Shown here piece by piece: positions 1 to 59,379 of a DNA stretch of 59,379 nucleotides. Where the stretch lies: assembly GCA_026418155.1 (NCBI GenBank), contig JAOABV010000005.1, positions 1-59,379 on the forward strand, given 5' to 3'. The notes beneath the pieces were generated by a model. It saw only the letters and a list, made by a program, of their open reading frames with translations. It made no database searches and was not told the origin of the DNA. Source of the DNA: a candidate division WOR-3 bacterium. GTDB lineage: Bacteria; Hydrothermota; Tepidihabitantia; Tepidihabitantales; CAIPLT01. Position numbers and translations under genes: made by a program. Each line of letters begins with the position of its first letter. Within the stretch, counting starts at the first letter, position 1.

Positions 1-298
1 GTCTAAAAAAGGATTAATTCTTCTATCAAAGTCAAGTTAAAAAGTGAGGAAAGTTTTAATGTCTAAAAAGGAATTACTTCTTCTATCAAAGTCAAGTTAA
101 AAAGTGAGGAAAGTTTTAATGTCTAAAAAAGAATTGCTTCTTCTATCAAAGACAAGTTAAAAAGTGAGGAAAGTTTTAATGTCTAAAAAGGAATTATTTC
201 TTCTATCAAAGACAAGTTAAAAAGTGAGGAAAGTTTTAATGTCTAAAAAGGAATTGCTTCTTCTATCAAAGTCAAGTTAAAAAGTGAGGAAAGTTTTA
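1..298 (+). repeat. Tandem array of five 60-bp units, each copying the ptsI RBS, start codon and first 8 codons; the array is cut by the window edge
   Basis: Units at 1-60, 61-120, 121-180, 181-240 and 241-300 are near-identical and in register with the real start at 299. Each holds GAGGAAAG, an ATG and a 13-codon ORF ending in TAA. Confidence 0.95.
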
Positions 299-2080
299 AT
301 GTCTAAAAAGGAATTAATTCTTCGTGGTATTCCGGTGTCTCCTGGTATCGCGATGGGAAGGGTATTTGTTTTTAAGCGGTTTGTTCCTAATTTTCGGGAA
401 CGCTTAATTCCTCATAATGAGGTTAGGAATGAAATTAGCCGTTTCCAAAAGGCGATTCGAGAGACAGAGCAAGAACTTAAGGTTTTGCAAGAAGAAATTC
501 GTCAAGAGATGGGCGCTGATTTGGCTGAACTTATTTCTTTACAGATTGCTTTGCTGAATGACCCTGAGTTAATTGATGGCACTATTAATTTCATTGTGAA
601 CGAAAAACGCAATGCGGAGTTTGCTTATTCTGAGATATTAAAAAAATATTTGATACCGTTAAACGATGCTAAGACTCCGTTCTTTAAAGAGCGTTTGGCC
701 GATGTTATTGATGTTTCCACTCGAGTGATGCGTAATCTTTCCGGTGAGGCTTTACCTTCGATTTATGAGGTTAGTCCTGGGTCAATTCTTGTTGCGCATG
801 ATTTGTTACCTTCAGAGGCTGCACTTTTAGACCGCGAACGCATTGCTGGTGTTGCGACTGAAGTTGGCGGTAAAACTTCTCATACCGCAATTATGACTAA
901 AGGTAAAGAAATTCCTGCAGTTGTTGGTGTTGAGCATTTGATGAAATCGGTCTCTTCGGTTTCTTCCCAAGTTGTGCTTGATGGCTCGCGTGGTCTTTTA
1001 ATTCTTGAGCCAACCGAAAAACGCATTAATTTTTATAAAAAAGAACTGGAAAGTATTCAAAGGCAACGCAGTTATCTGGCAACGCTTAAAGAATCGGAAT
1101 CGTCAACTTTAGATGGTAAGCATATTGATGTTTCAGCAAATATTGAATTTGTTGCCGAAACTTTAACCGCTTTAGAAAACGGTGCTCGGGGTATTGGTCT
1201 TTTTAGAACCGAATATCTCTATTTAGCCAAAAGAGGTCCGGTCTCAGAAGATGAACAGGCGATGATTTATGCTGATGTTGCGGATAAGATGAAGCCCTAT
1301 CCAGTTATCATCCGAACTTTTGATTTTGGTGGTGATAAGTTAATTCCAGGTTATTTTGAATCTAATCCGTTTTTAGGTTGGCGCGCTATCCGTTTGTGTT
1401 TTGATAATCTGGAACTTTTCTTAAATCAGATCAGAGCGATTTTACGCGCGGGCACGAAAGGTAATGTGAAGTTGATGCTACCAATGATTTCCAGTATCGA
1501 AGAACTAAGAAAGGCAAAATTGATTATTGAACAAGCCAAGAATGAGTTACGAAATAAAGGTGTGCAGTTTGACCCGAATCTCGAGGTCGGGATTATGGTG
1601 GAGACACCAGCCTGTGCTTTATTGGCAGACCAGTTTGCCCAAGAATGTAACTTTTTTTCGATTGGTTCTAATGATTTGACGCAATATACTTTAGCGGTCG
1701 ACCGAGATAATGACCGAGTAGCAAAACTTTATGACCATCTGCATCCGGCTGTGCTGAAATTGATTAAATCGACGATTGATTCGGCTCACAAGAATGGCAT
1801 CTGGGTCGGTTTGTGTGGTGAATTTGCCTCTGACCCGTTGGGCGTTATCGTCTTAGTGGGATTAGGAATTGACGAGTTATCAATGGTACCATTTGCGATA
1901 CCAATTGCCAAAAAGATTATTCGGAGCATTGATTTTAGTATTGTGAAAGAAATTGCCCAACAAATTCTGACTTTGTCAACACCGAAAGAAGTCAGTGATT
2001 TTATCCAAGAGAATATAAAAACCAAGTTTCCGGATTTAGCAAAGTTTTTAGCAACTGTACAGAGCGGTAATCAAGCCTAA
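299..2080 (+). CDS. ptsI: Phosphoenolpyruvate-protein phosphotransferase (PTS enzyme I)
   Basis: Full-length PEP-utilising enzyme architecture, with phospho-His loop GGKTSHTAIM and C-terminal SIGSNDLTQY. Start placed at ATG 299 (GAGGA 8 nt upstream) rather than the ORF-track GTG 284, which lies inside the repeat unit. Confidence 0.93.
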   Translation: MSKKELILRGIPVSPGIAMGRVFVFKRFVPNFRERLIPHNEVRNEISRFQKAIRETEQELKVLQEEIRQEMGADLAELISLQIALLNDPELIDGTINFIVNEKRNAEFAYSEILKKYLIPLNDAKTPFFKERLADVIDVSTRVMRNLSGEALPSIYEVSPGSILVAHDLLPSEAALLDRERIAGVATEVGGKTSHTAIMTKGKEIPAVVGVEHLMKSVSSVSSQVVLDGSRGLLILEPTEKRINFYKKELESIQRQRSYLATLKESESSTLDGKHIDVSANIEFVAETLTALENGARGIGLFRTEYLYLAKRGPVSEDEQAMIYADVADKMKPYPVIIRTFDFGGDKLIPGYFESNPFLGWRAIRLCFDNLELFLNQIRAILRAGTKGNVKLMLPMISSIEELRKAKLIIEQAKNELRNKGVQFDPNLEVGIMVETPACALLADQFAQECNFFSIGSNDLTQYTLAVDRDNDRVAKLYDHLHPAVLKLIKSTIDSAHKNGIWVGLCGEFASDPLGVIVLVGLGIDELSMVPFAIPIAKKIIRSIDFSIVKEIAQQILTLSTPKEVSDFIQENIKTKFPDLAKFLATVQSGNQA

Positions 2081-2252: not shown

Positions 2253-3290
2253 ATGAATAAAATGTTTAATCTTATCTATAATTTGCCTGACCAGATTAAA
2301 GATGCTTACAATATCGCGCAAAGGTATAAATTCAGTTCTAAACTTTTATTTCAGCCAGCTAATATCGTTATTACTGGTATGGGTGGTTCAGGAATTGGTG
2401 GCGAAATTATCCGTAGTCTATTTTGGACAACTTTGGATATTCCCATTATTATCTCTAAAGATTATACTTTACCAGGATGCGCCAATAAACAGAGTTTGGT
2501 CTTTGCAGTGAGTTATTCGGGTAATACTGAGGAAACGCTTGAAAGTTTTAATCTTGCCCGTAAACGCCGTTGTCCGATAGTTGCGATTACCAGTGGAGGG
2601 AAATTATTAGAGTTATGTAAGAAATATCAAATAGATTGTATTCAAATTCCATCAGGTCTACCCCCGCGTTCAGCAATTGGATATTTATTTATTCCTCAGT
2701 TAATTACTTTGGAGAAAATCGGAATAATCAAAAAAACGACTCAAACGATTAATGAAACGATTAATACTCTTATAACTAATCGGCAAAAATATAATATTCA
2801 GGCCCGAAAATTGGCTCGTGAATTGTTAAATAGCCTTCCGATTATCTATACCACCAGCCATCTTTTTAATCCGGTTGGTCTTCGCTGGCAGGCACAGTTT
2901 AACGAAAATGGCAAAACTTTTTGTCATTGGAATGTATTTCCGGAATTAGACCATAATGAGATTGTGGCTTTAGCCGATTCTACCAGTCTTACACAACCTT
3001 ATTATTTTCTAATCCTAATTGACTCCAATACCCATCGCCGCAATTTGCTTCGAGTTGATTTAACTTTGAAAATTATAAAATCTAAGGTAAAAAATATAAA
3101 AATAAAATCTAAGGTAAAAAATATAAAATTCAAAAAGTTTTATGCTGATGGCAAAGCAGATTTAACTCGCATCTTCTCGTTAATAATGCAAGGCGATTTA
3201 ATCAGTTTTTATTTGGCATATCTGCAAAACATTGACCCAATGCCCGTTTTGGCTATTGATGAACTGAAAAAAATGCTGGCAAGGCGCTAA
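2253..3290 (+). CDS. Bifunctional phosphoglucose/phosphomannose isomerase family (SIS domain)
   Basis: SIS motifs GMGGSGIGG and SYSGNTEET. C-terminal RWQAQFNENGK...PELDHNE pattern typical of PGI/PMI. Confidence 0.8.
   Translation: MNKMFNLIYNLPDQIKDAYNIAQRYKFSSKLLFQPANIVITGMGGSGIGGEIIRSLFWTTLDIPIIISKDYTLPGCANKQSLVFAVSYSGNTEETLESFNLARKRRCPIVAITSGGKLLELCKKYQIDCIQIPSGLPPRSAIGYLFIPQLITLEKIGIIKKTTQTINETINTLITNRQKYNIQARKLARELLNSLPIIYTTSHLFNPVGLRWQAQFNENGKTFCHWNVFPELDHNEIVALADSTSLTQPYYFLILIDSNTHRRNLLRVDLTLKIIKSKVKNIKIKSKVKNIKFKKFYADGKADLTRIFSLIMQGDLISFYLAYLQNIDPMPVLAIDELKKMLARR
3076..3129 (+). repeat. Perfect in-frame 27-nt tandem duplication inside the PGI/PMI CDS
   Basis: ataaaatctaaggtaaaaaatataaaa occurs twice back to back, giving IKSKVKNIK-IKSKVKNIK in the protein. 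Confidence 0.9.
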
Positions 3291-3300
3291 GGCGCTAAAG

Positions 3301-3596
3301 ATGATAAGAGAAATTCAGAAGCAAAATTTAATTTACGCAGAGCAGTCTACAGTTAGTATCGGCAAAAAATAAGTTATGCTAATAGTGAATAATATCTTTG
3401 GAAAAGATAATATAGGTGTTTTCGATAATAAAGCAGAAAAGAACAGTGATGTTCAAAGTTATTATATTCTTTGAAAAAGGTAATATTTATGGTTTTACTA
3501 ATAAAGTAGGCAAGGAGCCGTTATGTTCAAGGTTGTTATATTCTTTGAAAAAGGTAATATTTATGGTTTTACTAATAAAGTAGGCAAGGAGCCGTT
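3301..3596 (+). repeat. Four tandem 73-75-bp copies of the 5' end of the downstream nucleotidyltransferase gene, more decayed with distance
   Basis: ATGs at 3301, 3376, 3449 and 3523 precede the true ATG at 3597. The two proximal copies are near-identical and include AAGGAG plus ATG. Peptides MFKV(V/I)IFFEKGN resemble the true MLKVIIPAAGEG. Confidence 0.85.
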
Positions 3597-4571
3597 ATGT
3601 TAAAAGTAATTATCCCTGCTGCTGGCGAAGGCAGACGCTTAAAACCGCATACCCAGACTACCCCAAAAGTTTTACTCAAAGTCGCTGGTAAACCAATTTT
3701 AGGTCATATTCTGGACCGAATAATTTCAATAAATCCTGACGAGATAATTGTTATTGTCGGCAGTCAAGGAAAACAGATTCAAGATTTTCTAACCAAAAAC
3801 TATCCGCAAAAATTCCAATTTGTCGAACAACAAAACCCAATGGGATTAGGTGACGCTATCTATCGTGTTAGCGACTATCTTCAGTCAGAACCGGTGTTGA
3901 TTCTTTTAGGTGATACCATTCTTGATTTAGATTTCTCGGCTTTTATTGGCAAGGAAAATTTAGTTGGCATCAAACCAGTTTCCACTCCTCAACGCTTTGG
4001 TATCGTGGAGACGCGTAGCGGATATGTCACCCGAATTACGGAAAAACCGCTTGAGCCCAAAAGTAATCTGGCTTTAGTCGGAATCTACTATTTTACAAAT
4101 GCCCAACCGCTTTTCGATAATCTCAGAAAAATTGTCCAAGAAGGCAGAAAGACTCGCGGGGAATATCAATTGTCTGATGCTCTGCAAGAAATGATTGAGC
4201 AGGGTATCAAAATCAAAACTTTTCCTGTAGAATATTGGCTGGATTGCGGAACGCCCGAAGCACTAATCACAACTAACCGTTATCTGCTTCAATCCAACCA
4301 CTATTTTACACCCAGAGAAAAAGTAGTAATTATTCCGCCAGTTTATATTGATGACTCGGCAATCATTGAAGAATCCGTTATCGGTCCGTTTGTTTCCATT
4401 TCAGAACAAGTTGAGATTCGAAATTCAATTATCCGGGACTCAATTATTAATCAGGATTCATATGTGGAAAATTGTTTACTTGAAGGCTCAATCTTAAGCG
4501 AAAATGCAGTCGTCCGAGAACGAGCCCGAAAACTTAACTTAGGCGCTTTTTCGGAAATGGAATTGGGATAA
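3597..4571 (+). CDS. Sugar-phosphate nucleotidyltransferase (NTP-transferase domain plus C-terminal hexapeptide-like region)
   Basis: N-terminal IIPAAGEGRRLKP nucleotide-binding loop and an LGD motif. The C-terminal I/V-rich region is periodic. AAGGAG lies 6 nt upstream of the ATG. Confidence 0.8.
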   Translation: MLKVIIPAAGEGRRLKPHTQTTPKVLLKVAGKPILGHILDRIISINPDEIIVIVGSQGKQIQDFLTKNYPQKFQFVEQQNPMGLGDAIYRVSDYLQSEPVLILLGDTILDLDFSAFIGKENLVGIKPVSTPQRFGIVETRSGYVTRITEKPLEPKSNLALVGIYYFTNAQPLFDNLRKIVQEGRKTRGEYQLSDALQEMIEQGIKIKTFPVEYWLDCGTPEALITTNRYLLQSNHYFTPREKVVIIPPVYIDDSAIIEESVIGPFVSISEQVEIRNSIIRDSIINQDSYVENCLLEGSILSENAVVRERARKLNLGAFSEMELG

Positions 4572-4655
4572 TTTTATTTTACCACAAAGTCCCAAAGGAA
4601 AATAAAGCATTCGCTCACCGCACTTCTTTATTTATGATAATTAGAAAGGATTCCT

Positions 4656-5960
<1,305 letters not shown>

Positions 5961-6019
5961 AAAATTTTTCAGATTACAGATTATTTTATTGATATAATAA
6001 GTGTTGTCTATTTGGTAAT

Positions 6020-6125
6020 GTATAATAAATATTTTGTGTAGATTTAGACTTGATGTGTTAAAAATAAAGGTGTATTCTCCTATGATGAACAATTTCAATA
6101 ATAATAAGAGAACGCACCTAATGGA
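6020..6125 (+). repeat. Copy A of a dispersed ~50-nt intergenic motif, with extended similarity to the copy at 39851-39955
   Basis: gtataataaatattttgtgtagatttagacttgatgtgttaaaaataaaggt aligns with copies at 34321, 39851, 53444(-) and 55516(-). Confidence 0.7.
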
Positions 6126-7240: not shown

Positions 7241-7415
7241 TTATTTGGGAACATCCGCGTCACTAAGTCGGGGAAAGAAGATAATCCGATAACCTGCTTT
7301 TGCTTTACGCTGTAAATCATCAAGAATTCCATCTGCGACTTTAGAGATATAATCAAATTGTGTGAAAAATTGGGAATAAGGTATTTTATAGGCATAACAA
7401 AAGAGAGATAATTAA
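7241..7415 (-). pseudogene. Orphan C-terminal gene fragment
   Basis: This frame reads ...FTQFDYISKVADGILDDLQRKAKAGYRIIFFPRLSDADVPK* with no start codon. A ~57-nt internal tandem duplication lies at its upstream edge. Confidence 0.4.
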
Positions 7416-7467
7416 ATTTCATAGAAAATTGGAATAAGGATTTAATGGCTATAATAAAAATGCCGGT

Positions 7468-7715
7468 ACTAATCAAAAGAGCCACAGGCCTGTTTGACCG
7501 AGAAGGCAAAAGATTAGGCGACTTTATCGGCTATCCTATTGATAATCCAGAGGTTAAATCGTTCGGTCACCTAAAGGACAATCTGAGTATCTGTAGGTTG
7601 GGCGGGCAGAAGGGTATGCCGGAGGGTTGCCGAGGGGTATGCCCCCCGGCTTGCCCCCTGGCTTGCCGACCGGCTTGCCTATTAGGTGACCGAAGGTGTC
7701 AGTTAAGCCGGTGGT
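7468..7715 (+). repeat. GC-rich ~240-nt element, copy 1 (possible structured RNA or MITE-like element)
   Basis: Aligns over its length with the reverse complement of 29028-29258. Contains GGGTATGCC x2 and GGCTTGCC x3. A perfect 13-bp stem, TTCGGTCACCTAA (7562-7574) with TTAGGTGACCGAA (7682-7694), encloses the GC-rich core. Confidence 0.8.
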
Positions 7716-7799
7716 TAAAACAAAAGTATGATTGAAATGGTTAAAGAGATTGTCAATTAATAAATACAGCCGGATGGAACATTAAAAAACCAGAGGGAA

Positions 7800-8215
7800 A
7801 AGAATATGCTTATCTTTAATTTATCAGAATTTCCCCAACATAGACAATTTCTCGTAAAGAAATCCGATGGTCTTTAGTCTATCAGAGTTTCCCCAAACAC
7901 AGATAACATTTCCAAATATTCGTAGGAATAATCGGATTCACTATCAGAGGGAAATTTAATCCAGTCGTGACATTTCGGACAGTAAATCGGTTTCCCGATT
8001 TGTTTTTCTTTAATTTAGAACGATAATTACAAGTATCCTGTATGCCTTTTAGGTTTTTCAACTTCTTTGAAATAAACTTTTAAATTCTCTCTTATCCAGT
8101 CATAAAAATCCAATTCTAGGAAACTCAAAAAATTCTTAAACTTATCTTTTTCCTCTTTAATTTCATGATTTTTTGTAAAGTTTTAAATTCGCTTTCAATT
8201 TCTTTTACATTTATA
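7800..8215 (-). pseudogene. Frameshifted remnant of a small Cys-containing protein gene downstream of the nuclease operon
   Basis: Minus-strand pieces read ...DFYDWIRENLKVYFKEVEKPKRHTGY and, in another frame, CNYRSKLKKNKSGKPIYCPKCHDWIKFPSDSESDYSYEYLEMLSVFGETLID*. The 3' end motif ctatcaga(g/a)tttcccc is repeated. Confidence 0.4.
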
Positions 8216-8222: not shown

Positions 8223-9200
8223 TCACAATACTTCCTTCAGAATTATATCATTTGTTTGTTTATCTACATTATATTTTATTAACCTAACGGATTTTTCTTC
8301 AATTAATTTTCTCTTATTTATGTAATTAAGGACAGCGTCGTCAAAATCAAAGCCGACGAGAATGCTTTGAACCATTTCTGGATCCCCATTTGCCAATTTT
8401 CGCACTAACCAGTTTTCATATCCAATAATTTGTCTTAGATTTTCTTCAGTTACAATATCGGTTTTTAATTCGATGCAAGTAAATTTATGTAGAATTTCCA
8501 CGGAGTCAATCGTTGTAACGTGAGTTAAAAACAAATCCATTACTTTATTAAATGATGTCGGTACATAATTTAAAAAATCTTTGTAATCTCCAACTAAATT
8601 TTTCAACTTACTTTCACTGAAAGATTTCATAAACCATGCATTTAAAAATCCTTCATGTTTTATTTTCCCTTGTTCATCACATTCTAATGGTAACTGAATA
8701 TTTTGGGCTTTCGCAGGTTTGTAAGGATTTTTTATGCCCGTTACTGGTTCATATATAGGATTATTTCGTAAAAGAAGCCGAATTATTTCTTTTCCTTCTT
8801 CAGTTGTAATTGTATATTGATTTTTCCTTATGAACGCGCCCAAATCGAAAGTCCAAATTTTACCTTTATCTCTTAAATCTAGAATATCACTTAGTACAAC
8901 TGGTCTCATAAAATTTCTTACAATAGGTTCGAAACAAAATCGAAATGGATAAGTTTGATTATCGGCATTCCAAATATTCCTCTGTTCATAAAATGGATCG
9001 GTAGTTGCTCGCCATAACCCATAAATTCCCGTATTTTTAACATAAAAAAATATGAAGTCGTTAGGTTTAATAGCAAAAATACATGAAATTATTTCGGCAT
9101 TTGTCTTTATATTAGATGGCCATTCGGGGCTTCCGTAGACGCCTTTTTCGATGCAAGATTTAAAATTTTCTTTTCCAATTAAAAAAATATGATAACTCAT
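8223..9200 (-). CDS. Predicted PUA/EVE-like domain fused to a PD-(D/E)xK (NucS/RecB/Shedu-like) nuclease
   Basis: The N-terminal ~150 aa follow an EVE/PUA-like strand pattern (YHIFLIG..., IKPNDFIFFYVKNTGIYGLWRATTDPFYE, YPFRFCFEPI). The C-terminal part has E183, D222 (VMDLFL), E244-L-K246 (CIELK) and Q257-x3-Y261 (QIIGY). Confidence 0.5.
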   Translation of the reverse strand: MSYHIFLIGKENFKSCIEKGVYGSPEWPSNIKTNAEIISCIFAIKPNDFIFFYVKNTGIYGLWRATTDPFYEQRNIWNADNQTYPFRFCFEPIVRNFMRPVVLSDILDLRDKGKIWTFDLGAFIRKNQYTITTEEGKEIIRLLLRNNPIYEPVTGIKNPYKPAKAQNIQLPLECDEQGKIKHEGFLNAWFMKSFSESKLKNLVGDYKDFLNYVPTSFNKVMDLFLTHVTTIDSVEILHKFTCIELKTDIVTEENLRQIIGYENWLVRKLANGDPEMVQSILVGFDFDDAVLNYINKRKLIEEKSVRLIKYNVDKQTNDIILKEVL

Positions 9201-9225
9201 TTTATGTTAAAATTAATTCTTAATT

Positions 9226-9417
9226 TTAAGGTTTTTTGCTAAGATTGAATGCTCGCCAAGATTGTTCATGGTCTTTATTTTTTGTGGGATTTTTAAGCCA
9301 ATCCCGTTTATGCAATTCTTTTGCTTCTTGCAACAGTTCGGAAATATATTTATAAGTTTCTCCTCCAAATTTTTCTTTCTTTTTCTCGTATAGTGCTATC
9401 AAATCGGAGAAATTCAT
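9226..9417 (-). CDS. Hypothetical small protein (63 aa), middle gene of the nuclease operon
   Basis: ORF packed tightly between 9421-9642 and 8223-9200, with gaps of 3 and 25 nt. No recognisable motif. Confidence 0.5.
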   Translation of the reverse strand: MNFSDLIALYEKKKEKFGGETYKYISELLQEAKELHKRDWLKNPTKNKDHEQSWRAFNLSKKP

Positions 9418-9420
9418 TTG

Positions 9421-9642
9421 TTATCTTATAAATTGGGCTACACAATCTCTGCACACGGCATGAAGATTTTCGAGTTTTTCTGTTTTTGGAGTTTTCCAAT
9501 GGACAGATTTATCACGACCGAAACTATTGTAATAACTAAAACATTTTTGTAAAGTATCTTTTGATTTATAGTATTGTTTCTTGCCGTTTAATGGATAGGT
9601 ACAAACAATTACTAAATTATCAGTATTTGTTTTATTTGTCAT
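9421..9642 (-). CDS. Hypothetical small Cys/His-containing protein (73 aa), first gene of the nuclease operon
   Basis: Start moved to ATG 9642 (MTNKTNTDN...), because the ORF-track TTG 9666 lies upstream of the predicted -10 box. C...C...H...CRDC spacing hints at zinc binding. Confidence 0.5.
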   Translation of the reverse strand: MTNKTNTDNLVIVCTYPLNGKKQYYKSKDTLQKCFSYYNSFGRDKSVHWKTPKTEKLENLHAVCRDCVAQFIR

Positions 9643-9651
9643 CTTAAATGT

Positions 9652-9679
9652 ATTATAAATAACCAACTATTAATGTCAA
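9652..9679 (-). promoter_or_regulatory. Consensus sigma70-type promoter for the 9642-8223 operon
   Basis: On the minus strand: TTGACA (9679-9674), a 16-nt spacer and TATAAT (9657-9652). The ATG lies only 9 nt past the -10 box. Confidence 0.6.
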
Positions 9680-10088
9680 TGGAGAGTTAATTCGAAAATT
9701 AAGTTTCTAAACTAAAGTCAGATTGAAGCATAAGATTAGTCAAATAACAAATTTATTAAAAACATCAGATTGTATTGCCACCATCAAAAACTATTGCTTG
9801 CGACACGCGACCGTATTAGAGAATGCTCAGAAAAAAATAAGAAAAATATTCAATCAGTTCAATTTCTTCAATCGTAAGAATTGTCTTTTTCAGGCTTTTC
9901 GTTTTTAAGATTCCTGTGTTATTGTCTCTGCGGGATTGTTGGAATAAGGTCGGAAAAATTGAAAATAAAGTACTTTGCTTTGTGAGACATCTGTTTATAT
10001 TTTAGAGACTTTGTGAAAAAGGTGTATGGAGTTTAGAGAGACAATCTCTTTCAGTATAACAGACAAAAAATGGAAGGGGTGTATCGTA

Positions 10089-11438
10089 TTAGTCTTCGTA
10101 AGTAAGGTTGAGTTTATTCCAGAGCCATTTGACATCAAAATATGGTCTGCCTTGTTGTTTATTATATTCTTGCTGGTTTTCAAGTTGTTTTAGGAGTTCG
10201 ACAACTTCGATTTTACCTTTTTTCGTCTTTACGGACTGAAGAGGTGTTTTATTGTTGAGTGCGGGAATTGGTTGATGTAACCATTTTTCGTAATGTTCTC
10301 GCATTGCTTTGTTATACAATTCTTGTTCAATTTCTAACGGGATTTCGTTTTTCGGTTGGTATTTTGACATATCTTTAAGGGGTTTTAGTAATTCAATAGG
10401 TTCTTGAAATTCGTCCGATTGATGGCTGATGAAGTCACCAATTTTTTTGTTAAGTATTTCTTTGCCTTTATCTAATCGCTCTTTAGAATTAGTTTCAAAA
10501 ATCAACTTGTTACTTTGGATGGTGATTTTCCCAAAGATAACTTTTTCGCCATATTGGTTTAAGTCTTCCCAGATAAATTCCTCATCTTTAATGTTTTCAA
10601 ACTCAGTAATTGTTTTTAATCCGCTGAGCACTGCTGGGATGTCGCTAATGGTATATGTTGCTTTGGAAAATATCAGTGCTTCATTGGTTGTTGTTTGGAG
10701 AATTAATGGAGGCTGGTTGGCAATAGATGCGTACCAAATATCAATAAAAATGTGGCTATCTTTTTTGAGTAGTTCCTGCCAAGAACCATCTTTATTTTTT
10801 CTTAAATAATTTCGATAATATTTTTTAATATTTTTGACAATCAAACTCTTGTCCGTTATTGGGTATGGGTAATTACAACCACTGATGATATATTTCTTAT
10901 CAAGTGACAAAAGCCGAGTTGCGAAAATATTCCATTTTAGCATTGAGCGCGTGGCTAATTTTTCTTGGACTGTATATTCATTCTCTAAAAGAAGGTCTTT
11001 AAGTATCATTCCTTTTTCAGGAAATACTTCTTGAACTTCGTAAAGACTAATGTAGGTTTTCTTCATCATATCAAGGACTTTAAGATCTTCTGCAGTTAAT
11101 TTCGTTCCGCTTTCAATATATAAATCAATCAAAGTTTTTTTCGTTTTTGTATCAATTACCCAATCATAAACAACCCAATCCCAAAAATTTATATCAGCAA
11201 GTTGGAGAAACTCTGGAGTCATTTTTTCCGAAGTGGGCATTTGTTGGTGAAAAAAAAGCTTGGCTTTGTGGAGTTCAATATTATAATTGGCGTAGGCAAA
11301 TTTTAGAAGGTCTTGAACCAAGCGTCCTTTTACGAATTCTTCAAAACCAAATTCGGTATTGGTATTGACCAGACAGCACTTTTTGTATTTTTTACCACTA
11401 CCACAAGGACAAGGGTCGTTGCGACCAATCTGAGACAT
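10089..11438 (-). CDS. SEC-C motif domain protein (449 aa), function unknown
   Basis: N-terminal RNDPCPCGSGKKYKKCC zinc motif followed by a long uncharacterised body. The C-terminal helical segment reads ...IPALNNKTPLQSVKTKKGKIEVVELLKQLEN. Confidence 0.75.
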   Translation of the reverse strand: MSQIGRNDPCPCGSGKKYKKCCLVNTNTEFGFEEFVKGRLVQDLLKFAYANYNIELHKAKLFFHQQMPTSEKMTPEFLQLADINFWDWVVYDWVIDTKTKKTLIDLYIESGTKLTAEDLKVLDMMKKTYISLYEVQEVFPEKGMILKDLLLENEYTVQEKLATRSMLKWNIFATRLLSLDKKYIISGCNYPYPITDKSLIVKNIKKYYRNYLRKNKDGSWQELLKKDSHIFIDIWYASIANQPPLILQTTTNEALIFSKATYTISDIPAVLSGLKTITEFENIKDEEFIWEDLNQYGEKVIFGKITIQSNKLIFETNSKERLDKGKEILNKKIGDFISHQSDEFQEPIELLKPLKDMSKYQPKNEIPLEIEQELYNKAMREHYEKWLHQPIPALNNKTPLQSVKTKKGKIEVVELLKQLENQQEYNKQQGRPYFDVKWLWNKLNLTYED

Positions 11439-16059: not shown

Positions 16060-16077
16060 CCCTTATTAGAAAATAAG

Positions 16078-16410
16078 ATTAGTGCTATCTGAATGAAATT
16101 TTATATTTAAGATTTTTGTAGTATAGTTTTACTTATCTAAAAATACTATCCCAATGTTAAAGGAAAGTAAGGTATAGTGCTATTTGAGTTGAAATTTTAT
16201 ATTTAGGATTTTCGTCGTATAGTTCTATCTATCTCTATCTAAAAATAATAGACCAATCTTTAAGGAAAGTAATATTTAGTATTATTAAAGTTAAAATTTT
16301 ATATTTATGATCTTTGTAGTGTAGATTTACTTATCTAAAAATAATAGATTAATCTTAAAGGGAAGCATTATTTAGTACTATTTTGAGTTAAATTTTGGAG
16401 TTGTGAGATA
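16078..16410 (+). repeat. About 3.5 degenerate ~95-100-bp tandem repeats just downstream of the purL stop
   Basis: Units start near 16078, 16173, 16275 and 16371. All share ...agtgctat(c/t)tga...gaaattttatattta(a/g)gat...ctaaaaata.... The unit junction resembles the purL stop region (aagcattgattagtaattag). Confidence 0.8.
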
Positions 16411-16528
16411 TTTCCATTAGGAAAAAGTAATTTTGGGAAATAATTTTTTCAGTTTTATTGGAGTGAAGAGTAATGTTTCTTACAGAACCGAGAGTCTATT
16501 AGACAAATTTAAAAACACAAAATATTTT

Positions 16529-16837
16529 TTATTTGAGTCGAAACTTAATATCCGTAATTGCCTTTTCACCGATTTGGACGTTTAATTTGTTAATTATCTT
16601 TGATTTGAGAAATATTAATTCATTGCGCCAAATCGGATTTGAGACCAAGACTATTAAGGTCTTACCTTTAATTTTAATTGGTCGGGCATTTTTGGCAATT
16701 TGCTCACCAACTGCTTTAGGCCATAATGAGATTACCTGTTCTTGAACAAGTTTTGGGGTAAGTCCTAATTTGTCAAAGACTCTGGGTAATAAATCAGCCA
16801 GGGGTTTCAATTTTTTAGGTTTTATTTGCTTTGACAT
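16529..16837 (-). CDS. DUF721 (DciA-like) protein downstream of recF
   Basis: The pattern WPKAVGEQIAKNARPIKIKGKTLIVLVSNPIWRNEL, and the position after recF, are typical of the DUF721 family. Confidence 0.75.
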   Translation of the reverse strand: MSKQIKPKKLKPLADLLPRVFDKLGLTPKLVQEQVISLWPKAVGEQIAKNARPIKIKGKTLIVLVSNPIWRNELIFLKSKIINKLNVQIGEKAITDIKFRLK

Positions 16838-16992
16838 ACGGTAAATTGCCTAATAGTTCATTCTTTTGATTTTATTGGTTTCGACATAAAATAAATTTCT
16901 AAAGGGTTCATTTTGTTGCTTTTCTCTTTACATAAAATAAATCACCTAATTGTTTTAAGTTTCTTGATTTTGTTGGTTAGCCAAAGAATAAA
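16838..16992 (-). repeat. Three degenerate ~46-50-bp tandem copies of the DUF721 gene start, filling the recF-DUF721 spacer
   Basis: Minus-strand units read ...atttattttATGtcgaaaccaataaaatcaaaag... (ATG 16887) and ...gatttattttATGtaaagag... (ATG 16933), plus a third abutting the recF stop. The true start reads atttaccgtATGtcaaagcaaataaaacctaaaaaa. Confidence 0.75.
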
Positions 16993-28775: not shown

Positions 28776-28800
28776 TACTTTAATATTAGATAATACTTTA

Positions 28801-30961: not shown

Positions 30962-31031
30962 AGTTTTATATTCTCCTTATTTATGTCATTGAAAAAGAAT
31001 TTAGAGTAAATTAACAGGTTTCTTATCATAA

Positions 31032-40564: not shown

Positions 40565-40654
40565 AAAAATATCTTGTGCTTGACTTGGGTTTGTTTTTAC
40601 ATTACTTTTTCAATATTAATCTATAAAAATTGCTAAAAAGGAGTGAAGTAATTT

Positions 40655-41533: not shown

Positions 41534-42253
41534 TTATTGCCACTGGATTCGGGGAAAAGAAAGTCCTAAAAAGCCATCCAGTCCTAAAACAATGGTTAAA
41601 CACTTGTTATCAACATTTACTGGATAAGATAATTCAACATATAAACCAGTGGGAAAACTGGTTAATAACTTCTGGTCCTTCCAACCTTCTTTTCTAAAGA
41701 TATGCATGCCAATAAATAACACAGTTCCCAAAACATCTTTTTTATGTTGAGGTGATTCTTGGACTATCATATTGGACCAGTGAAATACTTTAATTCCACC
41801 ATACATCGAAAAATTTCTGGTGATGTTTTGACCCGTCATTAGTGTGCCAAAAGGTGCGAGTAGCATCTCGTTCATAATATAATCAAACCCAACTAATGTT
41901 GCGACATATTCTATTGGTCGATATTTTAAGTTTATGCCAATTGAAGAATTAATAGAACTATTGCCGTGAAGGCCGACATCTAAATTATTTGTTACTCCAT
42001 ACTGGATATACCCGCCATAAGTCTGGAATTTAGTATGTGAATCGTAATAAAGTGCAGTATCGCGGGCTTGAGTTGTTAAATATATTGGCAAAGTTAAAAA
42101 TCCAGTATAGCCGACATTACCAGTGCCACGAGTTGAAATATCTTGGCTAATACCCCAAATACCGTAAGAGAATTCAAAATGCAAAATGCAAAATGCAAAA
42201 ATTAAGATAAACCGCAGTATGCGGTTAGCAAATCTCCGAGAGCGTATTCTCAT
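41534..42253 (-). CDS. Predicted outer-membrane beta-barrel-like protein with a signal peptide
   Basis: Hydrophobic N-terminus, alternating aromatic/polar pattern and a C-terminal aromatic residue. Overlaps the stop of the upstream gene by 4 nt. Confidence 0.5.
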   Translation of the reverse strand: MRIRSRRFANRILRFILIFAFCILHFEFSYGIWGISQDISTRGTGNVGYTGFLTLPIYLTTQARDTALYYDSHTKFQTYGGYIQYGVTNNLDVGLHGNSSINSSIGINLKYRPIEYVATLVGFDYIMNEMLLAPFGTLMTGQNITRNFSMYGGIKVFHWSNMIVQESPQHKKDVLGTVLFIGMHIFRKEGWKDQKLLTSFPTGLYVELSYPVNVDNKCLTIVLGLDGFLGLSFPRIQWQ

Positions 42254-45412: not shown

Positions 45413-45972
45413 ATGTTATTATTTGTTTTACCATTAGTCTATATACACTGCCTGATACCGTAGAACTAAAAAGCACACAGGATATTTCTTATCGTTTATT
45501 CACCCAAGATAGCACTTTATATTTTCAATTCAAAACAAACAAGAACTGGTCTGTGCCTTAAACAATTGTCGAAAAAGTATCAGAATATGTAATGACTGTT
45601 ACAAATGGTGATTACATTCATCTTGTCTGGGTTAAACAATGAAGAATTTATTATTAAGATAAATAAGATAAATAAGATAAAATAAGATAAATAAGATAAA
45701 TATGTATCCTGTTAATAAAGATTCGTTAAAAAATCAGAAACACCAAGATGGGAATGTAACATTGCTATATCAATTCCAGGTCTTAATGAACCTGCGTCAG
45801 ATATTTCTATGATATTTCAGGCAGATTAGTTAAAACTTTAGTTGATGAAGAAAAGGAACTTGGCAACTACTCATTAACTCTCAACACAAAAACACTTTGT
45901 TCAGGCGTATATTTTCTATCGCTCCAGACAAAAGATAAAAGAATAATTGAAAGATTAGTTATAATAAAATAA
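45413..45972 (+). pseudogene. Decayed gene for a T9SS-sorted protein
   Basis: A short signal-peptide-like ORF begins at 45413. The broken middle contains a 9-nt microsatellite (aagataaat, 45656-45703). An intact-looking CTD tail reads YDISGRLVKTLVDEEKELGNYSLTLNTKTLCSGVYFLSLQTKDKRIIERLVIIK*. Confidence 0.55.
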
Positions 45973-47619: not shown

Positions 47620-49707
47620 CTATACCATCGCTTCGCTTTCGAAGAAATCTTTAATCGTCTCAATTGAAAATGTTATTGGTAAATTTCGCGGTAAAGAGTT
47701 AAGAAATTGTTTACCATATTCTTTCGTGACAATTCTTTTGTCTAAAACGCAGACCACTCCCCGGTCTTGTTTATTACGAATCAATCGGCCGAATCCTTGT
47801 CGGAATCTTAAAACCGCATTGGGCAATTGATAGGTAGTAAATGGTTCAAGTTTATTGGCTCTTAATTTCTCACAAATTCCTTCTAAGCGCGGGTCATCAG
47901 GCACATCAAAGGGCAACCGCACAATTATCAGACAACTCAAGGCTTCACCAGGAACATCAATACCCTGCCAAAAAGATTGCGTCGCAAAAAGGACTGAGGC
48001 AACATCTTTTTTGAACTTTTCCAGCAGTTCCAGAGTTGATTCTTCGCCTTGAATTAAAAATGGGAATTCGCTCTTATCAATTAATTGAAAAGTCTTTTGT
48101 AAAGCATTATAACTAGTAAAAAGCACTAATGCCCTGCCTTTGGTCATTTTTAGGATTTTATCAATTACGAAGGCACAATCAATTAAGAATTTCTCTTCAT
48201 CTGTTGGCAAAGGAAGATTAGTTGGAATGACCAATAGTGCCTGTTGGTGATAGTTAAATGGCGAATCTAATTGTAGAGTTTCAACTTTATCCAACCCCAG
48301 TCGATTTTGAATAAAACCAAAATCTTTACTAACTGTTAAAGTTGCGGAAGTTAAAATCACACTTGAAATTCTTTCTAAAACTCTTTGACGAAATAAGTCA
48401 GCAATATCAATTAAGGCACTGATAAGACAAATATATGGACTTTTTTTACTGGTCAGATTTGTCGTTTCAATCCAATAGACTGAGTTTTTATCTTGGACTT
48501 GCAGAAAATCATTTACACCCATTCGATAACCTTCAATTCTTTTAAGAACATTCTTTAATTCTAATGCGATATCATCATCCATATCTTCGGATTCAATTTG
48601 TAATAGCCGATTACCAAGTATTGTAAAAATCTTATCTAATCTGTTTTCAATATTTAGCGGTCGTTTGATTCTTATTTTAGTTTCGGCGTGAGGTATTAAA
48701 TTCAAAAGATACTGGAACAGTTCCTTGCTCGCCGAGTTCGCATCATCGATAATTTGGCCAATTGTGCGTTTCTGTTCTTGGGAAATTTCTAAATGGGCAA
48801 TAAGTCCCGTATTATTTCTGGGGTTATAGATTGTATTTAACATTCGTTGGAGACCGAAATTAGAAATTTCAATGCCGAAAAATTGCGCGGCAACTTCTTC
48901 TAAGCGGTGTGCTTCATCAAAAATAACGGCATCAAACTTGGGTAAGATATAAAAATTGGCTTCAACATTAGCAAAGAAGAGTGCATGATTGGTGACTAAA
49001 ATATCCGCATTTAACCACTCTTTTCTGGCCCGGAAATAATAACAATCATTATAATATTCACATTTCTGAAACTTACAGATATCGCCCTCGCGACAAATTT
49101 TTTCTTGGGTTTTACCTAAAACTTCAGGATATTCTGGAATAATTCCCGAACCACCTTCATCCAGCCATCTTAGAAGTGTTTCTAATTCAGCATATTCATA
49201 AGGTGTATCAAACAGTCCATGATTAAATGCACTATTCAATCTTCGGAGACACACATAATTATCTTGACCAAAGATTACCGCATAATTTATCGAAGCATTA
49301 TTAAAACCATTTTGAAGGTGTTCTGTGTCCTTTGCCGAAGTTGTTTTCCGATAAAAATTGGGTTCATCTTGATATTGGTCCAAATTGTTTAATTGTTCAG
49401 AAATAGCAATACTTTTTTTAAGCAATGGAATATCTTTTTTAATAAGTTGATTTTGAAGGATTTTGGTATAAGTAGAAATAACAACTTTTTTCTTATGCAT
49501 TTTTGCCCATAATGAAGCAGGTAATAGATATGCCAAACTTTTTCCCACTCCGGTTCCGGCTTCAACCATTAAATGATATTTATGATTTAAGGCTTGATAG
49601 ACTGCTTTTGCCATTTCTTGTTGTTCAGTGCGTTCTTCAAAATTTTCCAGAGTTTTTGCTAAAGGACCTTTACGGCAGAAAAACTCATTAATTAAATGTT
49701 CGGACAT
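47620..49707 (-). CDS. dinG: DinG/XPD-like ATP-dependent DNA helicase with an Fe-S cluster domain
   Basis: Walker A EAGTGVGKS and DEAH box FDEAHRLEE. Four Cys lie between them (CLRR...CREGDICKFQKCEYYNDC). Confidence 0.85.
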   Translation of the reverse strand: MSEHLINEFFCRKGPLAKTLENFEERTEQQEMAKAVYQALNHKYHLMVEAGTGVGKSLAYLLPASLWAKMHKKKVVISTYTKILQNQLIKKDIPLLKKSIAISEQLNNLDQYQDEPNFYRKTTSAKDTEHLQNGFNNASINYAVIFGQDNYVCLRRLNSAFNHGLFDTPYEYAELETLLRWLDEGGSGIIPEYPEVLGKTQEKICREGDICKFQKCEYYNDCYYFRARKEWLNADILVTNHALFFANVEANFYILPKFDAVIFDEAHRLEEVAAQFFGIEISNFGLQRMLNTIYNPRNNTGLIAHLEISQEQKRTIGQIIDDANSASKELFQYLLNLIPHAETKIRIKRPLNIENRLDKIFTILGNRLLQIESEDMDDDIALELKNVLKRIEGYRMGVNDFLQVQDKNSVYWIETTNLTSKKSPYICLISALIDIADLFRQRVLERISSVILTSATLTVSKDFGFIQNRLGLDKVETLQLDSPFNYHQQALLVIPTNLPLPTDEEKFLIDCAFVIDKILKMTKGRALVLFTSYNALQKTFQLIDKSEFPFLIQGEESTLELLEKFKKDVASVLFATQSFWQGIDVPGEALSCLIIVRLPFDVPDDPRLEGICEKLRANKLEPFTTYQLPNAVLRFRQGFGRLIRNKQDRGVVCVLDKRIVTKEYGKQFLNSLPRNLPITFSIETIKDFFESEAMV

Positions 49708-50101: not shown

Positions 50102-50212
50102 CTTTAATAAAAATATCGAAAAATATCTTAAAGTCAATATTATTGGCATTAAATTACATTACTTGAATTTTAAGCAAATATTACTTATAATAATATATCG
50201 TTATTTATTTAT

Positions 50213-50310
50213 AATTTATTATTTATTTTTATTTTTAATTTATTATTTATTTTTATTTTTAATTTATTATTTATTTTTATTTTTAATTTATTATTTATTT
50301 TTGTATTTTT
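50213..50310. repeat. Four tandem 24-bp pure A/T units in a divergent promoter region
   Basis: aatttattatttatttttattttt begins at 50213, 50237, 50261 and 50285; the last copy is a variant. Confidence 0.9.
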
Positions 50311-50360
50311 AACAAAGAAGAAATAAATATTATAAATTTAGATTAGAAAGGAATAAAACT

Positions 50361-55515: not shown

Positions 55516-55579
55516 AGTCAAGATAGATTTTATTTTTAATATCAAGTCTAAATTTACACCAATATTATACACTACCTTT
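55516..55579 (-). promoter_or_regulatory. Copy E of the dispersed upstream motif, fused to a -35-like TTGACT
   Basis: The minus strand reads aaaggtagtgtataatattggtgtaaatttagacttgatattaaaaataaaatctatcTTGACT. It parallels copy C nearly base for base. Confidence 0.6.
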
Positions 55580-55687
55580 ATGGAAGAAAAAAGAATTACA
55601 CAAAATTCCTAATGCAACCTTTTTCCGATAATTGTAAAAATTAAATTTCGCTTGACCAACGGATAATCTTAAATATAATATTTTACT

Positions 55688-56911: not shown

Positions 56912-59379
56912 ATGCAAGTAAAAAATATCATTGTCCTGCTTGTCGTCATTCTAATTTTGTTTGGCGACGCACAAGCACGAAACGGTAGCATTATTAAGGA
57001 AATTACTTTTCCTGCCTATACTCTGAAAATTGAAAATATTAATAACTACGACTTAATTAGGATAAAAGGTTGCGATTTAACAATACAAGAACCTGGAAAA
57101 CCAGTTATTCCTGTTGCTAATCTTAATGTTCTGATTCCACCATCTGCTGAAATTACTAGTATTGAAATACTTGATGCAAAACAAATTGAAATTCCTGGTA
57201 AATATATTCTTTATCCTGGTCAAAATCCTTATCCTTTATCTTATCAAGGAGAAAAACCATTTGTTGCTCCTGATGCTGAAACTTATCAATTAACAACTGC
57301 CTATCCTGGATATTTAACCCAGATTATTCCCAGTGGCAATAAATCTGGTTTTAGGATTGGTGGTTTCTTTTTATATCCTTTGCAATATATTCCCAGTGAA
57401 GGAAAACTTATTCTCAATGAACGGATGACTGTGAAAATTAATTATGAAGAGAACCGATATGAAGTCTGGTCTTTAACTCAATCCCAGAAAAATCTGTTCC
57501 AATCCGATGTTAAAGATTTAGTAATCAATCCGGAAGATATTGAGAAATTCTCGCCACTGATTAAAGCCTCAGACCCAACAAATATTGATTATGTTATTTT
57601 GACATCTTCAAGTCTGGAATCAAGATTTACGCCATTAGTCAATTGGTTAAAGAAGACCGGCTATAAAACAGAAACCCGTAATGTTACTTGGGTAAATTCT
57701 AATTATCCTGGTCGTGACTTACAAGAAAAGATTCGAAATTTTATTCGTGACTATTTTACTAATTATGGTATGAAATATATCTTATTGGCTGGCGACCATT
57801 CGATTATCCCCTCGCGACAAGCCCGAGCTGTGGTTGGCAGTAATGTCGGAAATATCCCTTGTGACTTATACTATCTTGATTTGCAGTGGTCTTGGGATGG
57901 TAATAACAACAATATATTTGGTGAAGCAACTTATGATACTGTGGATTTGTATTATGACTTATATGGCGGAAGATGGCCAGTAGAAACAACGGCTGAACTT
58001 GATACTTTAATCAGAAAATTCTTTACTTATGTTAAGAATCCCAATATCGGTTATCAGAAACGAATGATGTTACCTGCTGCATATCTCTGGACCGGCTATG
58101 ACCACACAACATCGCAAAATATGATCGCAGGTTATAGTCCTGCAGATTGGACTGACCGGGTAATTGATATGGGACAAAATGATGCTTGGCGATGGGCAGT
58201 GCGCGATTCTTTAAATACTGGCTTTGGATTTCTCCATATGGTTGGTCATGGTAATGACTACGGCGTATATATCAGCGGTCCAATGTACTACTATTCTGAC
58301 CCAGCAACTCAAACCAATTACGATAAATTGACTATTGCCAACTCAATTGCTTGTTATCCCGGCAATTTTGAAACTAATGACTGTCTGGCAGAGATGATGG
58401 TATTAGCAAGAGGTAGTGCAATTGCTACAATAATGAATTCAAGATACGGTTGGGGATATACAAACCAGATTGGACCTTCAGAATTGCTGGATGTCCGTTT
58501 TTATAATTATTTCTTTTCGTATGACTCTATTCGCATTGCTAATTGTCATCAGTCATCTAAAGAATTTTATCGTAACACTGCAATGAGTCAGCAAGTCTGG
58601 CGCTGGTGCTATTATGAATTGAATCTTTTTGGTGAACCGCAGATGATGATGTGGAAAGATAATCCGCAAACAATGAGCGCCAGTTTTGCTAATCCCATTT
58701 ATACTGGTCCACAATCTTTTACTGTCACAGTTACTTCTGGAGGCTCACCAGTTGCCTCCGCAATCGTTGCGTTATGGAAAGGGACTGAAGTCTTTACCAA
58801 AGGCACGACTAATGCCAGTGGTCAAGTAACTTTATCAATCAATCCCAGTTCTACGGGTTATATGTATATTACTGTAACTGCCAAGAATAAACTACCGATT
58901 GAAGATAGCACTCAAGTTGTTGCTGCTAATCAGTTTGATGTTGGTGTAACAACCCTTCTTCAGCCCAGTGGCACAATCTCACAGAACACAGTTGTCACAC
59001 CTGCTTGTTCAGTTTATAACTATGGCAATACTAATGTCAGTTTCTTAGTAAGAATGAAGATCGGTAATTTCTATAATCAGACCGCATCAGTCTCAAACCT
59101 TGCTCCTGGTACAAAGCAATATGTGACCTTTACCAATTGGACCGCAACCCAACTGGGCACACATCCTGTTAGTTGCTCCACTGAACTTACTGGTGATATG
59201 AATCCTGCTAATGACAAACAGACCGGTTCTGTGACTGTGATTTATACGGATGTTGGTGTAACAACCCTTCTTCAGCCCAGTGGCACAATCTCACAGAACA
59301 CAGTTGTCACACCTGCTTGTTCAGTTTATAACTATGGCAATACTAATGTCAGTTTCTTAGTAAGAATGAAGATCGGTAA
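56912..59379 (+). CDS. Gingipain-like peptidase C25 with C-terminal CARDB-like repeats (3' partial, runs off the window)
   Basis: Not in the ORF track because it is open-ended. AAGGAGG RBS, a signal peptide, YILLAGDHSIIP, catalytic-type HMVGHGN and SIACYPGNF. Two 104-aa repeats follow. Confidence 0.8.
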   Translation, partial: MQVKNIIVLLVVILILFGDAQARNGSIIKEITFPAYTLKIENINNYDLIRIKGCDLTIQEPGKPVIPVANLNVLIPPSAEITSIEILDAKQIEIPGKYILYPGQNPYPLSYQGEKPFVAPDAETYQLTTAYPGYLTQIIPSGNKSGFRIGGFFLYPLQYIPSEGKLILNERMTVKINYEENRYEVWSLTQSQKNLFQSDVKDLVINPEDIEKFSPLIKASDPTNIDYVILTSSSLESRFTPLVNWLKKTGYKTETRNVTWVNSNYPGRDLQEKIRNFIRDYFTNYGMKYILLAGDHSIIPSRQARAVVGSNVGNIPCDLYYLDLQWSWDGNNNNIFGEATYDTVDLYYDLYGGRWPVETTAELDTLIRKFFTYVKNPNIGYQKRMMLPAAYLWTGYDHTTSQNMIAGYSPADWTDRVIDMGQNDAWRWAVRDSLNTGFGFLHMVGHGNDYGVYISGPMYYYSDPATQTNYDKLTIANSIACYPGNFETNDCLAEMMVLARGSAIATIMNSRYGWGYTNQIGPSELLDVRFYNYFFSYDSIRIANCHQSSKEFYRNTAMSQQVWRWCYYELNLFGEPQMMMWKDNPQTMSASFANPIYTGPQSFTVTVTSGGSPVASAIVALWKGTEVFTKGTTNASGQVTLSINPSSTGYMYITVTAKNKLPIEDSTQVVAANQFDVGVTTLLQPSGTISQNTVVTPACSVYNYGNTNVSFLVRMKIGNFYNQTASVSNLAPGTKQYVTFTNWTATQLGTHPVSCSTELTGDMNPANDKQTGSVTVIYTDVGVTTLLQPSGTISQNTVVTPACSVYNYGNTNVSFLVRMKIG
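58937..59379 (+). repeat. 312-nt-period repeat within the C25 gene; the last 131 nt of the window exactly match 58937-59067
   Basis: gatgttggtgtaacaacccttcttcagcccagtggc...aagatcggtaa is identical at 58937 and 59249. Confidence 0.9.

Follow-up and report, generated by a model that had tools for sequence, protein, structure and literature searches.

The window analyzed here is an entire metagenomic contig of 59,379 bases from a candidate division WOR-3 bacterium, and our subject is a set of short tandem duplications in it, many of which copy the start or the end of a neighboring gene. The GC content of the window is about 35%, and the best matches of its nrdD gene are found in candidate division WOR-3 metagenome-assembled genomes (MAGs), at amino-acid identities of up to 95%. 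Pfam matches back the names ptsI, bacterial PGI/SIS, NTP-transferase, tgt, purL, DciA (DUF721), recF, livM, livG, tsf and HU. Among replication- and repair-type genes the window encodes recF, dciA and a gene for a DinG-like helicase, and no transposase is encoded in it. Both contig ends lie in repeats, the start in the ptsI array and the end in a 312-bp in-frame repeat.

The arrays of the window (Table 1) were detected in agreement by Tandem Repeats Finder (TRF), a repeat finder and self-blastn with offsets of up to 400 bp. At its default penalties TRF overlooks the 70-75% identical arrays of the sister locus L003, and a softer self-blastn was therefore used. The window gave 16 local high-scoring segment pairs (HSPs) of at least 34 bits, against at most 0.05 in 40 block-shuffles, so the pattern of tandem duplication that had been claimed for this DNA holds, shuffled sequence yielding virtually no local repeats. 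When the terminal 110 nt of each gene were compared with the adjacent spacer (200 shuffles), the signal was strong for the nrdD stop (z=62), the tgt start (z=30), the livM stop (z=20) and the ptsI start (z=11), and moderate for the recF stop (z=4.9), the HU stop (z=4.7), the M50 stop (z=4.3) and the dciA start (z=4.1). It was not significant for the tsf stop (z=2.0) and the purL stop (z=1.3).

Eight cases are robust: the arrays at ptsI, NTP-transferase, tgt and livM/livG, the 180-bp and 18-bp repeats of nrdD, the repeat over the PGI stop, and the array that the original prediction had placed at purL. The repeat at the PGI/PMI stop is tandem as claimed, with a unit of 8 rather than 9 bp, and the supposed purL array is real, although its units derive from dciA, the gene convergent with purL, and repeat its 3' end. 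The dciA-start/recF-stop case and the HU repeat, at an offset of 82 bp, have moderate support. The duplication of about 78 bp predicted at tsf comes down to a match of about 15 nt and is not retained. Self-blastn shows the arrays at separate loci to be unrelated in sequence, and in the gene-end test the units align to neighboring gene ends. Read by sequence, the major arrays are all head-to-tail with nothing inserted between copies, the exception being the livG-livF spacer of the sister locus L004. Rfam and tRNA scans of the arrays gave no match.

Table 1. Tandem repeats of the window, with arrays at gene ends first and those in spacers and inside genes below.
Feature	Position	Strand	Unit and copies	Remarks
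ptsI array	1-323	+	60 bp, at least 5.4 copies	94-100% identical
PGI/PMI stop repeat	3281-3298	+	8 bp (AAGGCGCT) x2.25	over stop codon 3288-3290
NTP-transferase array	3364-3613	+	73/74 bp x3.4	
tgt array	4643-4939	+	three copies (91, 98 bp)	tgt 5' end, about -4/-13 to +85
dciA 3'-end array ("purL" array)	16069-16396 (feature 16069-16553)	-	94-102 bp x3.5	
dciA-start units	16788-17048	-	3 or 4 degenerate units of ~50 bp	recF-dciA spacer; resemble dciA start; moderate support
livM/livG junction	23736-23913	+	94 bp x2	74% identical
nrdD 3' end	28616-28944	+	180 bp x2	95% identical
Nested nrdD repeat	28766-28801	+	18 bp x2, perfect	over stop 28773-28775
HU 3' end	40541-40652	+	last 24-26 nt (ATGAAAATTGCTAAAAAGGGTTAA) repeated 82 bp downstream	moderate support
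Spacer repeat	7343-7459		59 bp x2	77% identical; 2.2-kb stretch without long ORFs; no recognizable gene end
Spacer repeat	7798-7906		58 bp x2	76-83% identical; same 2.2-kb stretch
Spacer repeat	31024-31100		22-26 bp x3	lgt-M50 spacer; perfect sub-duplications within
Spacer repeat	50204-50312		24-bp AT-rich unit x4.5	divergent intergenic region; no gene end
In-gene repeat	3075-3128	+	27 bp x2.00, perfect	in-frame (9 aa) inside PGI/PMI gene; no flanking microhomology
In-gene repeat	58937-59379	+	312 bp, in-frame	inside gene for C25-peptidase/type IX secretion system (T9SS) surface protein; separate category; contig ends within

At gene starts, the copies carry the signals of translation initiation to different degrees. 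Each unit of the ptsI array carries a Shine-Dalgarno sequence (SD, GTGAGGAAAG), an ATG and the first eight ptsI codons, followed by a mini-ORF (open reading frame) of 13 codons that leaves an 18-nt gap before the true ATG at 299, with no start overlap. Because the contig begins within this array, its copy number, alone among the arrays, is uncertain, 5.4 being a lower bound. The NTP-transferase unit spans about -57 to +17 relative to the start at 3597. Identity is 92% between its two proximal copies and 68% for the distal one, from which the SD is gone, and an upstream ORF (uORF) stops just inside the true start, a near-overlap. Beside the dciA-start units, the last ~50 nt of recF (16993-17048) resemble the repeated unit, likewise in L003; recF may have acquired its C-terminus from a duplicated 5' copy of dciA, or A-rich low complexity may account for the resemblance. 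An oriC/DnaA-box reading of the dciA-side array was rejected, as neither dnaA nor dnaN lies nearby and a skew minimum is lacking.

The mini-ORFs of the tgt array occupy 4656-4757 and 4747-4848, the second of which overlaps the tgt ATG at 4845 through an ATGA, and the original tgt SD (AAAGGA) now lies ahead of copy 1. Between the window and the locus L091, identity reaches 76.5% in the proximal copy, compared with 51% at 4-fold degenerate sites of tgt (binomial p=2e-7), whereas no alignment is possible further upstream (z=0.2). The copy shares derived states with its counterpart in L091, its frame remains open across a 3-nt in-frame indel, and the ATGA overlap is found in both. Judged from these sequence comparisons, the proximal copy looks like one co-opted to serve as leader or uORF, but conservation of this kind could also result from gene conversion by tgt.

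The arrays at stops and junctions each leave one working gene. The PGI/PMI protein is unaltered by the 8-bp repeat over its stop codon. The dciA 3'-end array lies between the convergent purL and dciA genes, with units that correspond to the dciA 3' end (tatttgagtcgaaa...); the true dciA stop is at 16529 on the minus strand. An equivalent 107-bp array is present in L003, where an upstream unit agrees with the true dciA end over 22 exact bases, and the two arrays cannot be aligned with each other. At the livM/livG junction the order is livM 3' end, pseudo-livG start, pseudo-livM 3' end and real livG. The downstream copy of the nrdD 3' end is a pseudo-fragment with a frameshifting 1-nt deletion and a TGG to TAG change, and it resembles its own gene more than it does the gene of either sister species. 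Because the breakpoint falls within the final codons, the functional copy ends in GGIR before its stop, and the downstream pseudo-copy retains the ancestral-like ending GGFTKE. The selection filter at nrdD is thus soft, the working gene having gained a new end.

At HU, the repeated end supplies an AAGGAG ahead of a very basic 31-codon ORF (MPCGRKRKLRKIKRHKFKKRRKANRHKKKLR; 40655-40750, plus strand), which has a good SD and is flanked by HU and tRNA-Arg. Neither Pfam nor NCBIfam gave a match for it, and we presume that it resembles the small bS22-type ribosome-associated peptides.

The original prediction that the duplications sit precisely on gene boundaries was overstated, because the four spacer repeats of Table 1 contain no recognizable gene end. 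Two 7-bp repeats, capable of throwing the frame out, lie near gene starts: AAAATCA x4.4 at 22844-22874, just past the livM ATG, and AATGCAA x4.3 at 42171-42200, near the start of the gene at 41534-42253. They could be slippage-prone tracts or the result of mis-called starts.

For comparison we used 80 nrdD loci of up to 22 kb each from a scan of species-representative genomes and applied identical repeat detection to all. The window, L003 (nrdD 95% identical) and L004 (92%) form a clade, and the other 77 WOR-3-like loci have nrdD identities of 65-83%, many of them being equally AT-rich. Non-coding arrays, defined as those outside long ORFs, number 16 in 104 kb of the clade and 7 in 1.23 Mb of the 77 others, an excess of about 27-fold in tandem duplications of 20-200 bp; the arrays in the latter are nearly all in-frame domain repeats within long ORFs. 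Perfect duplications of at least 16 bp show the same shift, with 7 in 142 kb of the clade and 2 in 1.3 Mb elsewhere. Intergenic DNA has expanded as well: the median spacer is 148 bp in the clade and 36 bp in the others (39 bp in low-GC relatives; p=3e-8), and the crude coding density is 73-82% versus a median of 90%.

Comparison of orthologous loci in sister genomes, as had been proposed, showed that the duplicated junctions differ by genome. The livM/livG junction is duplicated in the window only; L003, L006 and L007 retain the ancestral ATGA overlap, and in L004 and L005 the genes abut. Conversely, livG/livF is duplicated in L003 (116 bp) and L004 (a 634-bp spacer with nested units), and the window retains TAAgATG. 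The nrdD 3' duplication occurs in the window only, and the purL start is duplicated in L004 only (136 bp). A metagenome scan with tgt gave 8 loci, and an exact-protein look-up of the window tgt found no match; the tgt duplication is common to the window and L091 (tgt 92% identical) and absent in more distant relatives. Around dinG, two loci from other parts of the sister MAGs, L093 and L095, carry arrays of their own, namely a 154-bp duplication across the stop of a Cys/Met-lyase gene, present only in L093, and arrays of 101 bp and of 100 bp x6 in L095. Because the synonymous divergence (dS) within the clade is about 1.05-1.3, the recognizable copies must be younger than or about as old as the splits, and older ones will have decayed to anonymous spacer. 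Together, the young perfect copies and the sister-specific duplicated junctions show that duplication is ongoing.

Two observations adjoin this comparison. Besides the gene-end copies, the L004 livG-livF spacer holds an insert of ~150 nt (gacggggtgtcaagtgaaaaaaattacgtcacagtcg...), twice repeated (7270-7420 and 7520-7670). In L083 (tgt 83% identical), a separate 66-bp duplication with 97% identity lies upstream of tgt at 1640-1736, and the tendency to duplicate may extend, more weakly, past the core clade.

About half to two-thirds (50-67%) of the clade arrays contain a gene end, and the rest are purely intergenic. In a survivorship simulation, in which random segments of 95-120 bp were drawn and those wholly inside a gene discarded, the boundary-spanning share was 62-70% on compact outgroup maps and 44-51% on the present clade maps. 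The periods of boundary and intergenic arrays (60, 74, 91, 98, 94, 180, 107, 116, 121, 136, 154 bp, etc.) show no bias toward multiples of 3, whereas in-gene periods are 9, 12, 27 and 312 bp, except for the two 7-bp tracts close to annotated gene starts. No targeting is needed to explain these positions; purifying selection on a roughly uniform input does so. Targeting of boundaries was dropped as an explanation, given the marginal outcome of random placement, and the survivorship model was used in its place. Of the two readings offered with the original prediction, the first, a high rate of 50-200-bp duplication filtered by selection, is thus supported by the clade excess, the turnover between genomes, the frame contrast and the survivorship fit.

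We consider it likely that the clade has a lineage-specific, ongoing and largely homology-independent bias toward tandem duplication, filtered by selection. In this clade (nrdD at least 92% identical), head-to-tail duplications of 8-200-bp segments would arise or persist far more often than in related lineages. They would strike anywhere, and those wholly inside a gene would be purged unless in-frame and harmless, while those that span or abut a start, stop or junction would leave one intact gene plus a truncated pseudo-copy and be tolerated, as would those confined to spacers. Extra copies would then decay neutrally into anonymous spacer DNA, and arrays would grow by re-duplication or vanish by recombination between copies. 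A retained copy may sometimes be co-opted, as in the conserved leader or uORF upstream of tgt. The net outcome would be insertion-biased intergenic growth, with spacers about four times longer and proteins under strong purifying selection.

The cause would be mutational, a change in replication or repair leading to more formation and/or less loss of duplications, rather than general drift. At the perfect young duplications the microhomology is 0 for units of 27, 18, 26 and 22 bp and 2 for units of 19 and 8 bp, which hints that the youngest events arose by staggered-break fill-in and rejoining or by flap mis-ligation rather than by slippage between direct repeats. A CTTTAA match at the nrdD junction dissolved once the breakpoints were mapped against sister genomes. 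The apparent range of 60-180 bp is probably set by what can still be detected among short units and by a quicker recombinational loss of long ones. More tentatively, and with considerable doubt, the clade could represent free-living bacteria with an insertion-biased indel spectrum in which homology-independent tandem duplications, tens to hundreds of bases long, prevail and which stems from a specific heritable change in replication or repair, for instance in flap processing or in staggered-break fill-in and rejoining. Such a bias would keep enlarging the intergenic DNA and now and then give rise to new leaders or uORFs, even though selection on proteins is efficient.

Several points weigh against a duplication bias filtered by selection. 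The conserved tgt leader indicates that not all retained copies are neutral. Duplication at livG/livF recurs in L003 and L004, and L007 has a perfect 227-bp one there, which could reflect hotspots or shared ancestry instead of uniform input. Random placement of arrays on the current gene map gave a marginal result, with 5 of 9 containing a boundary (P=0.05), and the association with boundaries is therefore explained by a selection filter without being proof of one. The clade was sampled through ~142 kb of loci rather than whole genomes. Finally, the microhomology values come from a tiny sample of 4-6 events, two of them in one array, older junctions such as livM/livG and nrdD being too decayed to read.

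The alternative that survives best, though we regard it as unlikely, involves no special mutational input: under weak selection or a small effective population, combined with a weakened deletion bias, rare duplications and junk would accumulate. The low coding density, the long spacers, pseudogene remnants such as the T9SS-protein fragment at 45454-45960 and the presence of dispersed small repeats all fit this idea. On the other hand, dN/dS in the clade is 0.04-0.06, as low as the 0.042 of a control pair (five conserved genes only), and neither accelerated protein evolution nor relaxed selection is seen. Moreover, the young perfect duplications are themselves enriched about 30-fold, which argues for a raised input rate and not for retention alone.

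About as improbable is that the arrays are kept because they are useful, with stacked ribosome-binding sites and ATGs or uORFs that load ribosomes or couple translation, or with duplicated leaders and promoters that tune expression and uncouple overlapping genes. This was the second reading of the original prediction, and it is supported only at tgt, where the proximal copy is conserved and open in the window and L091 and the native SD has been displaced to copy 1. The NTP-transferase uORF that terminates just within the true start and the SD and ATG kept in all ptsI copies also agree with it. However, with identities of 92-100% the ptsI copies and the proximal NTP-transferase copies are recent, and intact starts in them are uninformative on selection. 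As a general rule the reading is not supported, since older extra copies lose SD and/or ATG: this is seen in NTP-transferase copy 1, in dciA copy 1 and in the livF pseudo-starts, where ATG has become TTG in L003 and ATA in L004. No start is included in half of the arrays, which lie at stops or in pure spacer, the dciA-stop arrays of the window and L003 do not align, and a scan for sigma-70-like promoters found no enrichment within arrays. Most genes here do without an SD anyway (an SD-like motif precedes 16 of 45), and at tgt itself gene conversion could imitate conservation.

Footprints of an enzyme that makes staggered cuts, either the transposase or integrase of an excised element or a nicking or defense nuclease, would resemble target-site duplications; we hold this to be very unlikely. 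Young duplications with exactly 2.00 copies and no flanking microhomology are what staggered-end fill-in predicts. Against it, unit lengths run continuously from 8 to ~180 bp with no fixed sizes or modes, there are no element remnants and no terminal or inverted repeats between copies, and the window encodes no transposase. Array ends also have no common motif, and units are unrelated between loci.

That the arrays are assembly artefacts, with strain variants or k-mer loops falsely laid in tandem, can be dismissed as extremely improbable, because two NCBI MAGs and a Logan assembly (L001, L002 and L003) agree at 100% identity across 8.6-22 kb that includes the arrays, and junctions differ among sisters, and because most copies are 60-95% identical, mostly 60-90%, and decayed, with frameshifts and stop codons, in the order predicted by junction duplication, the nrdD pseudo-copy being closest to its own gene and not to a sister species. 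What speaks for an artefact is that both contig ends lie within repeats, that it is uncertain how many copies the ptsI array (94-100% identical) has, and that the unrelated MAGs L007 (8024-8380) and L010 (19478-19725) have near-perfect 227-bp tandem duplications of gene ends (HSPs up to 100% identical), the equal length of which suggests an assembler artefact rather than biology in those two. High-identity arrays do interrupt assemblies: tgt of close relatives lies on contigs of 1.3-1.7 kb, and L096 ends where the L095 array starts.

The window holds further features outside the arrays. A dispersed element of ~190-220 nt occurs in two inverted copies with 85% identity (7486-7675 and 29061-29250), and its core (GGGTTGCCGAGGGGTATGCCCCCCGGC...) is strikingly GC-rich for a 35% GC genome. 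It has no Rfam match and no copy among 96 fetched loci, and could be a miniature inverted-repeat transposable element, an RNA or a gene fragment. A motif of 55-100 nt (GGTAGTGTATAATATTTTGTGTAAATTTAGACTTGATGTGTTAAAAATAAAG) is found in four intergenic copies (6014-6120, 34321-34373, 39843-39953 and 55529-55580), one of which adjoins rplM directly upstream; it may be a common promoter or leader or a small mobile element. The DinG-like helicase has a 36-aa in-frame insertion (49288-49414, residues ~100-138) that is lacking in the 656-aa orthologues of both sister MAGs, and that cannot be recognized as a duplication.

The stretch at 8223-11438, which long ORF-free DNA flanks, has a low GC content (29-32%). 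Its products are a protein of 325 aa whose N-terminus weakly matches the EVE domain and a SEC-C-motif protein of 449 aa whose C-terminus is Xre/ParS-antitoxin-like, and it may be a mobile or defense islet. At 45454-45960, fragments match secreted proteins of relatives solely in their N-terminal part and in their C-terminal part, the T9SS sorting domain, and this region is probably the remnant of a gene with an internal deletion.

Bacterial genomes are thought to be compact since deletions outnumber insertions. A homology-independent duplication bias would, if true, be a natural counter-example to a universal deletional bias. Spacers that have quadrupled while proteins remained constrained would offer a natural experiment on deletion bias, which would point to a definable defect in repair or replication. 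The arrays also show directly how overlapping operon genes separate and how genes gain new 3' ends (nrdD) or new leaders and uORFs (tgt). In practical terms, such arrays break short-read assemblies and mislead gene callers.

We know of no genome described with such tandem duplications at roughly one array per 6-7 kb, and literature searches found no direct description of the pattern, be it for WOR-3 or for bacteria in general. In animal mitochondria, tandem duplication followed by random loss produces boundary-spanning duplications of which one functional copy is kept and pseudo-fragments decay to spacers. There, whole genes are usually duplicated and gene order is altered, whereas the arrays of the WOR-3 clade involve tens to hundreds of bases of gene ends with order unchanged. 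Close direct repeats, slipped-strand duplication and duplication mutators (such as yeast rad27/FEN1 or E. coli polA 5'-nuclease mutants) have reportedly been treated by Achaz and colleagues (2002), by Lovett (2004) and by Tishkoff and colleagues (1997). Slippage and flap duplications are derived from the locus itself, lie head-to-tail and measure from 5 to over 100 bp, and their rate can rise strongly through one defect of replication or flap processing. Classical events are flanked by direct repeats of 3-12 bp, in contrast to the 0-2 bp at the few young events here.

In their position the arrays of the tgt type recall the MIRUs (mycobacterial interspersed repetitive units), 40-100-bp units in tandem at start codons in operons, whose unit ORF is coupled to the downstream gene at a -4 spacing (PMC12548453). 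The tgt array with its -4 ATGA overlap in the window and L091 is similar, and so is the NTP-transferase near-overlap, but not ptsI with its 18-nt gap or the stop-side arrays. MIRUs form one dispersed, apparently mobile consensus family, whereas each array of the WOR-3 clade derives from its own gene end, with no similarity across arrays.

The closest described case, by analogy, is Portiera aleyrodidarum of the whitefly Bemisia tabaci, so that the original statement that this is not a described genome feature is correct in part: literature searches turned up no account for WOR-3, yet lineage-specific intergenic tandem-repeat expansion as such has been described. Portiera shows a lineage-specific instability with a coding density of 69%, against 96% in its sister lineage (Sloan & Moran 2013, PMC3673631). 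Its intergenic regions are lengthened, tandem repeats are concentrated in the spacers, and the usual excess of deletions is absent (PMC3673631). The repeats are mostly 7-bp microsatellites, and the bacterium is an ancient obligate endosymbiont with accelerated substitution that has lost dnaQ and other repair genes (PMC3673631). The WOR-3 clade differs in that its arrays are 60-180-bp copies of adjacent gene ends, in that it is an environmental bacterium, and in that dN/dS is not elevated. It shares with Portiera a sharply lower coding density, longer spacers and an excess of tandem repeats in those spacers, about 27-fold in the clade.

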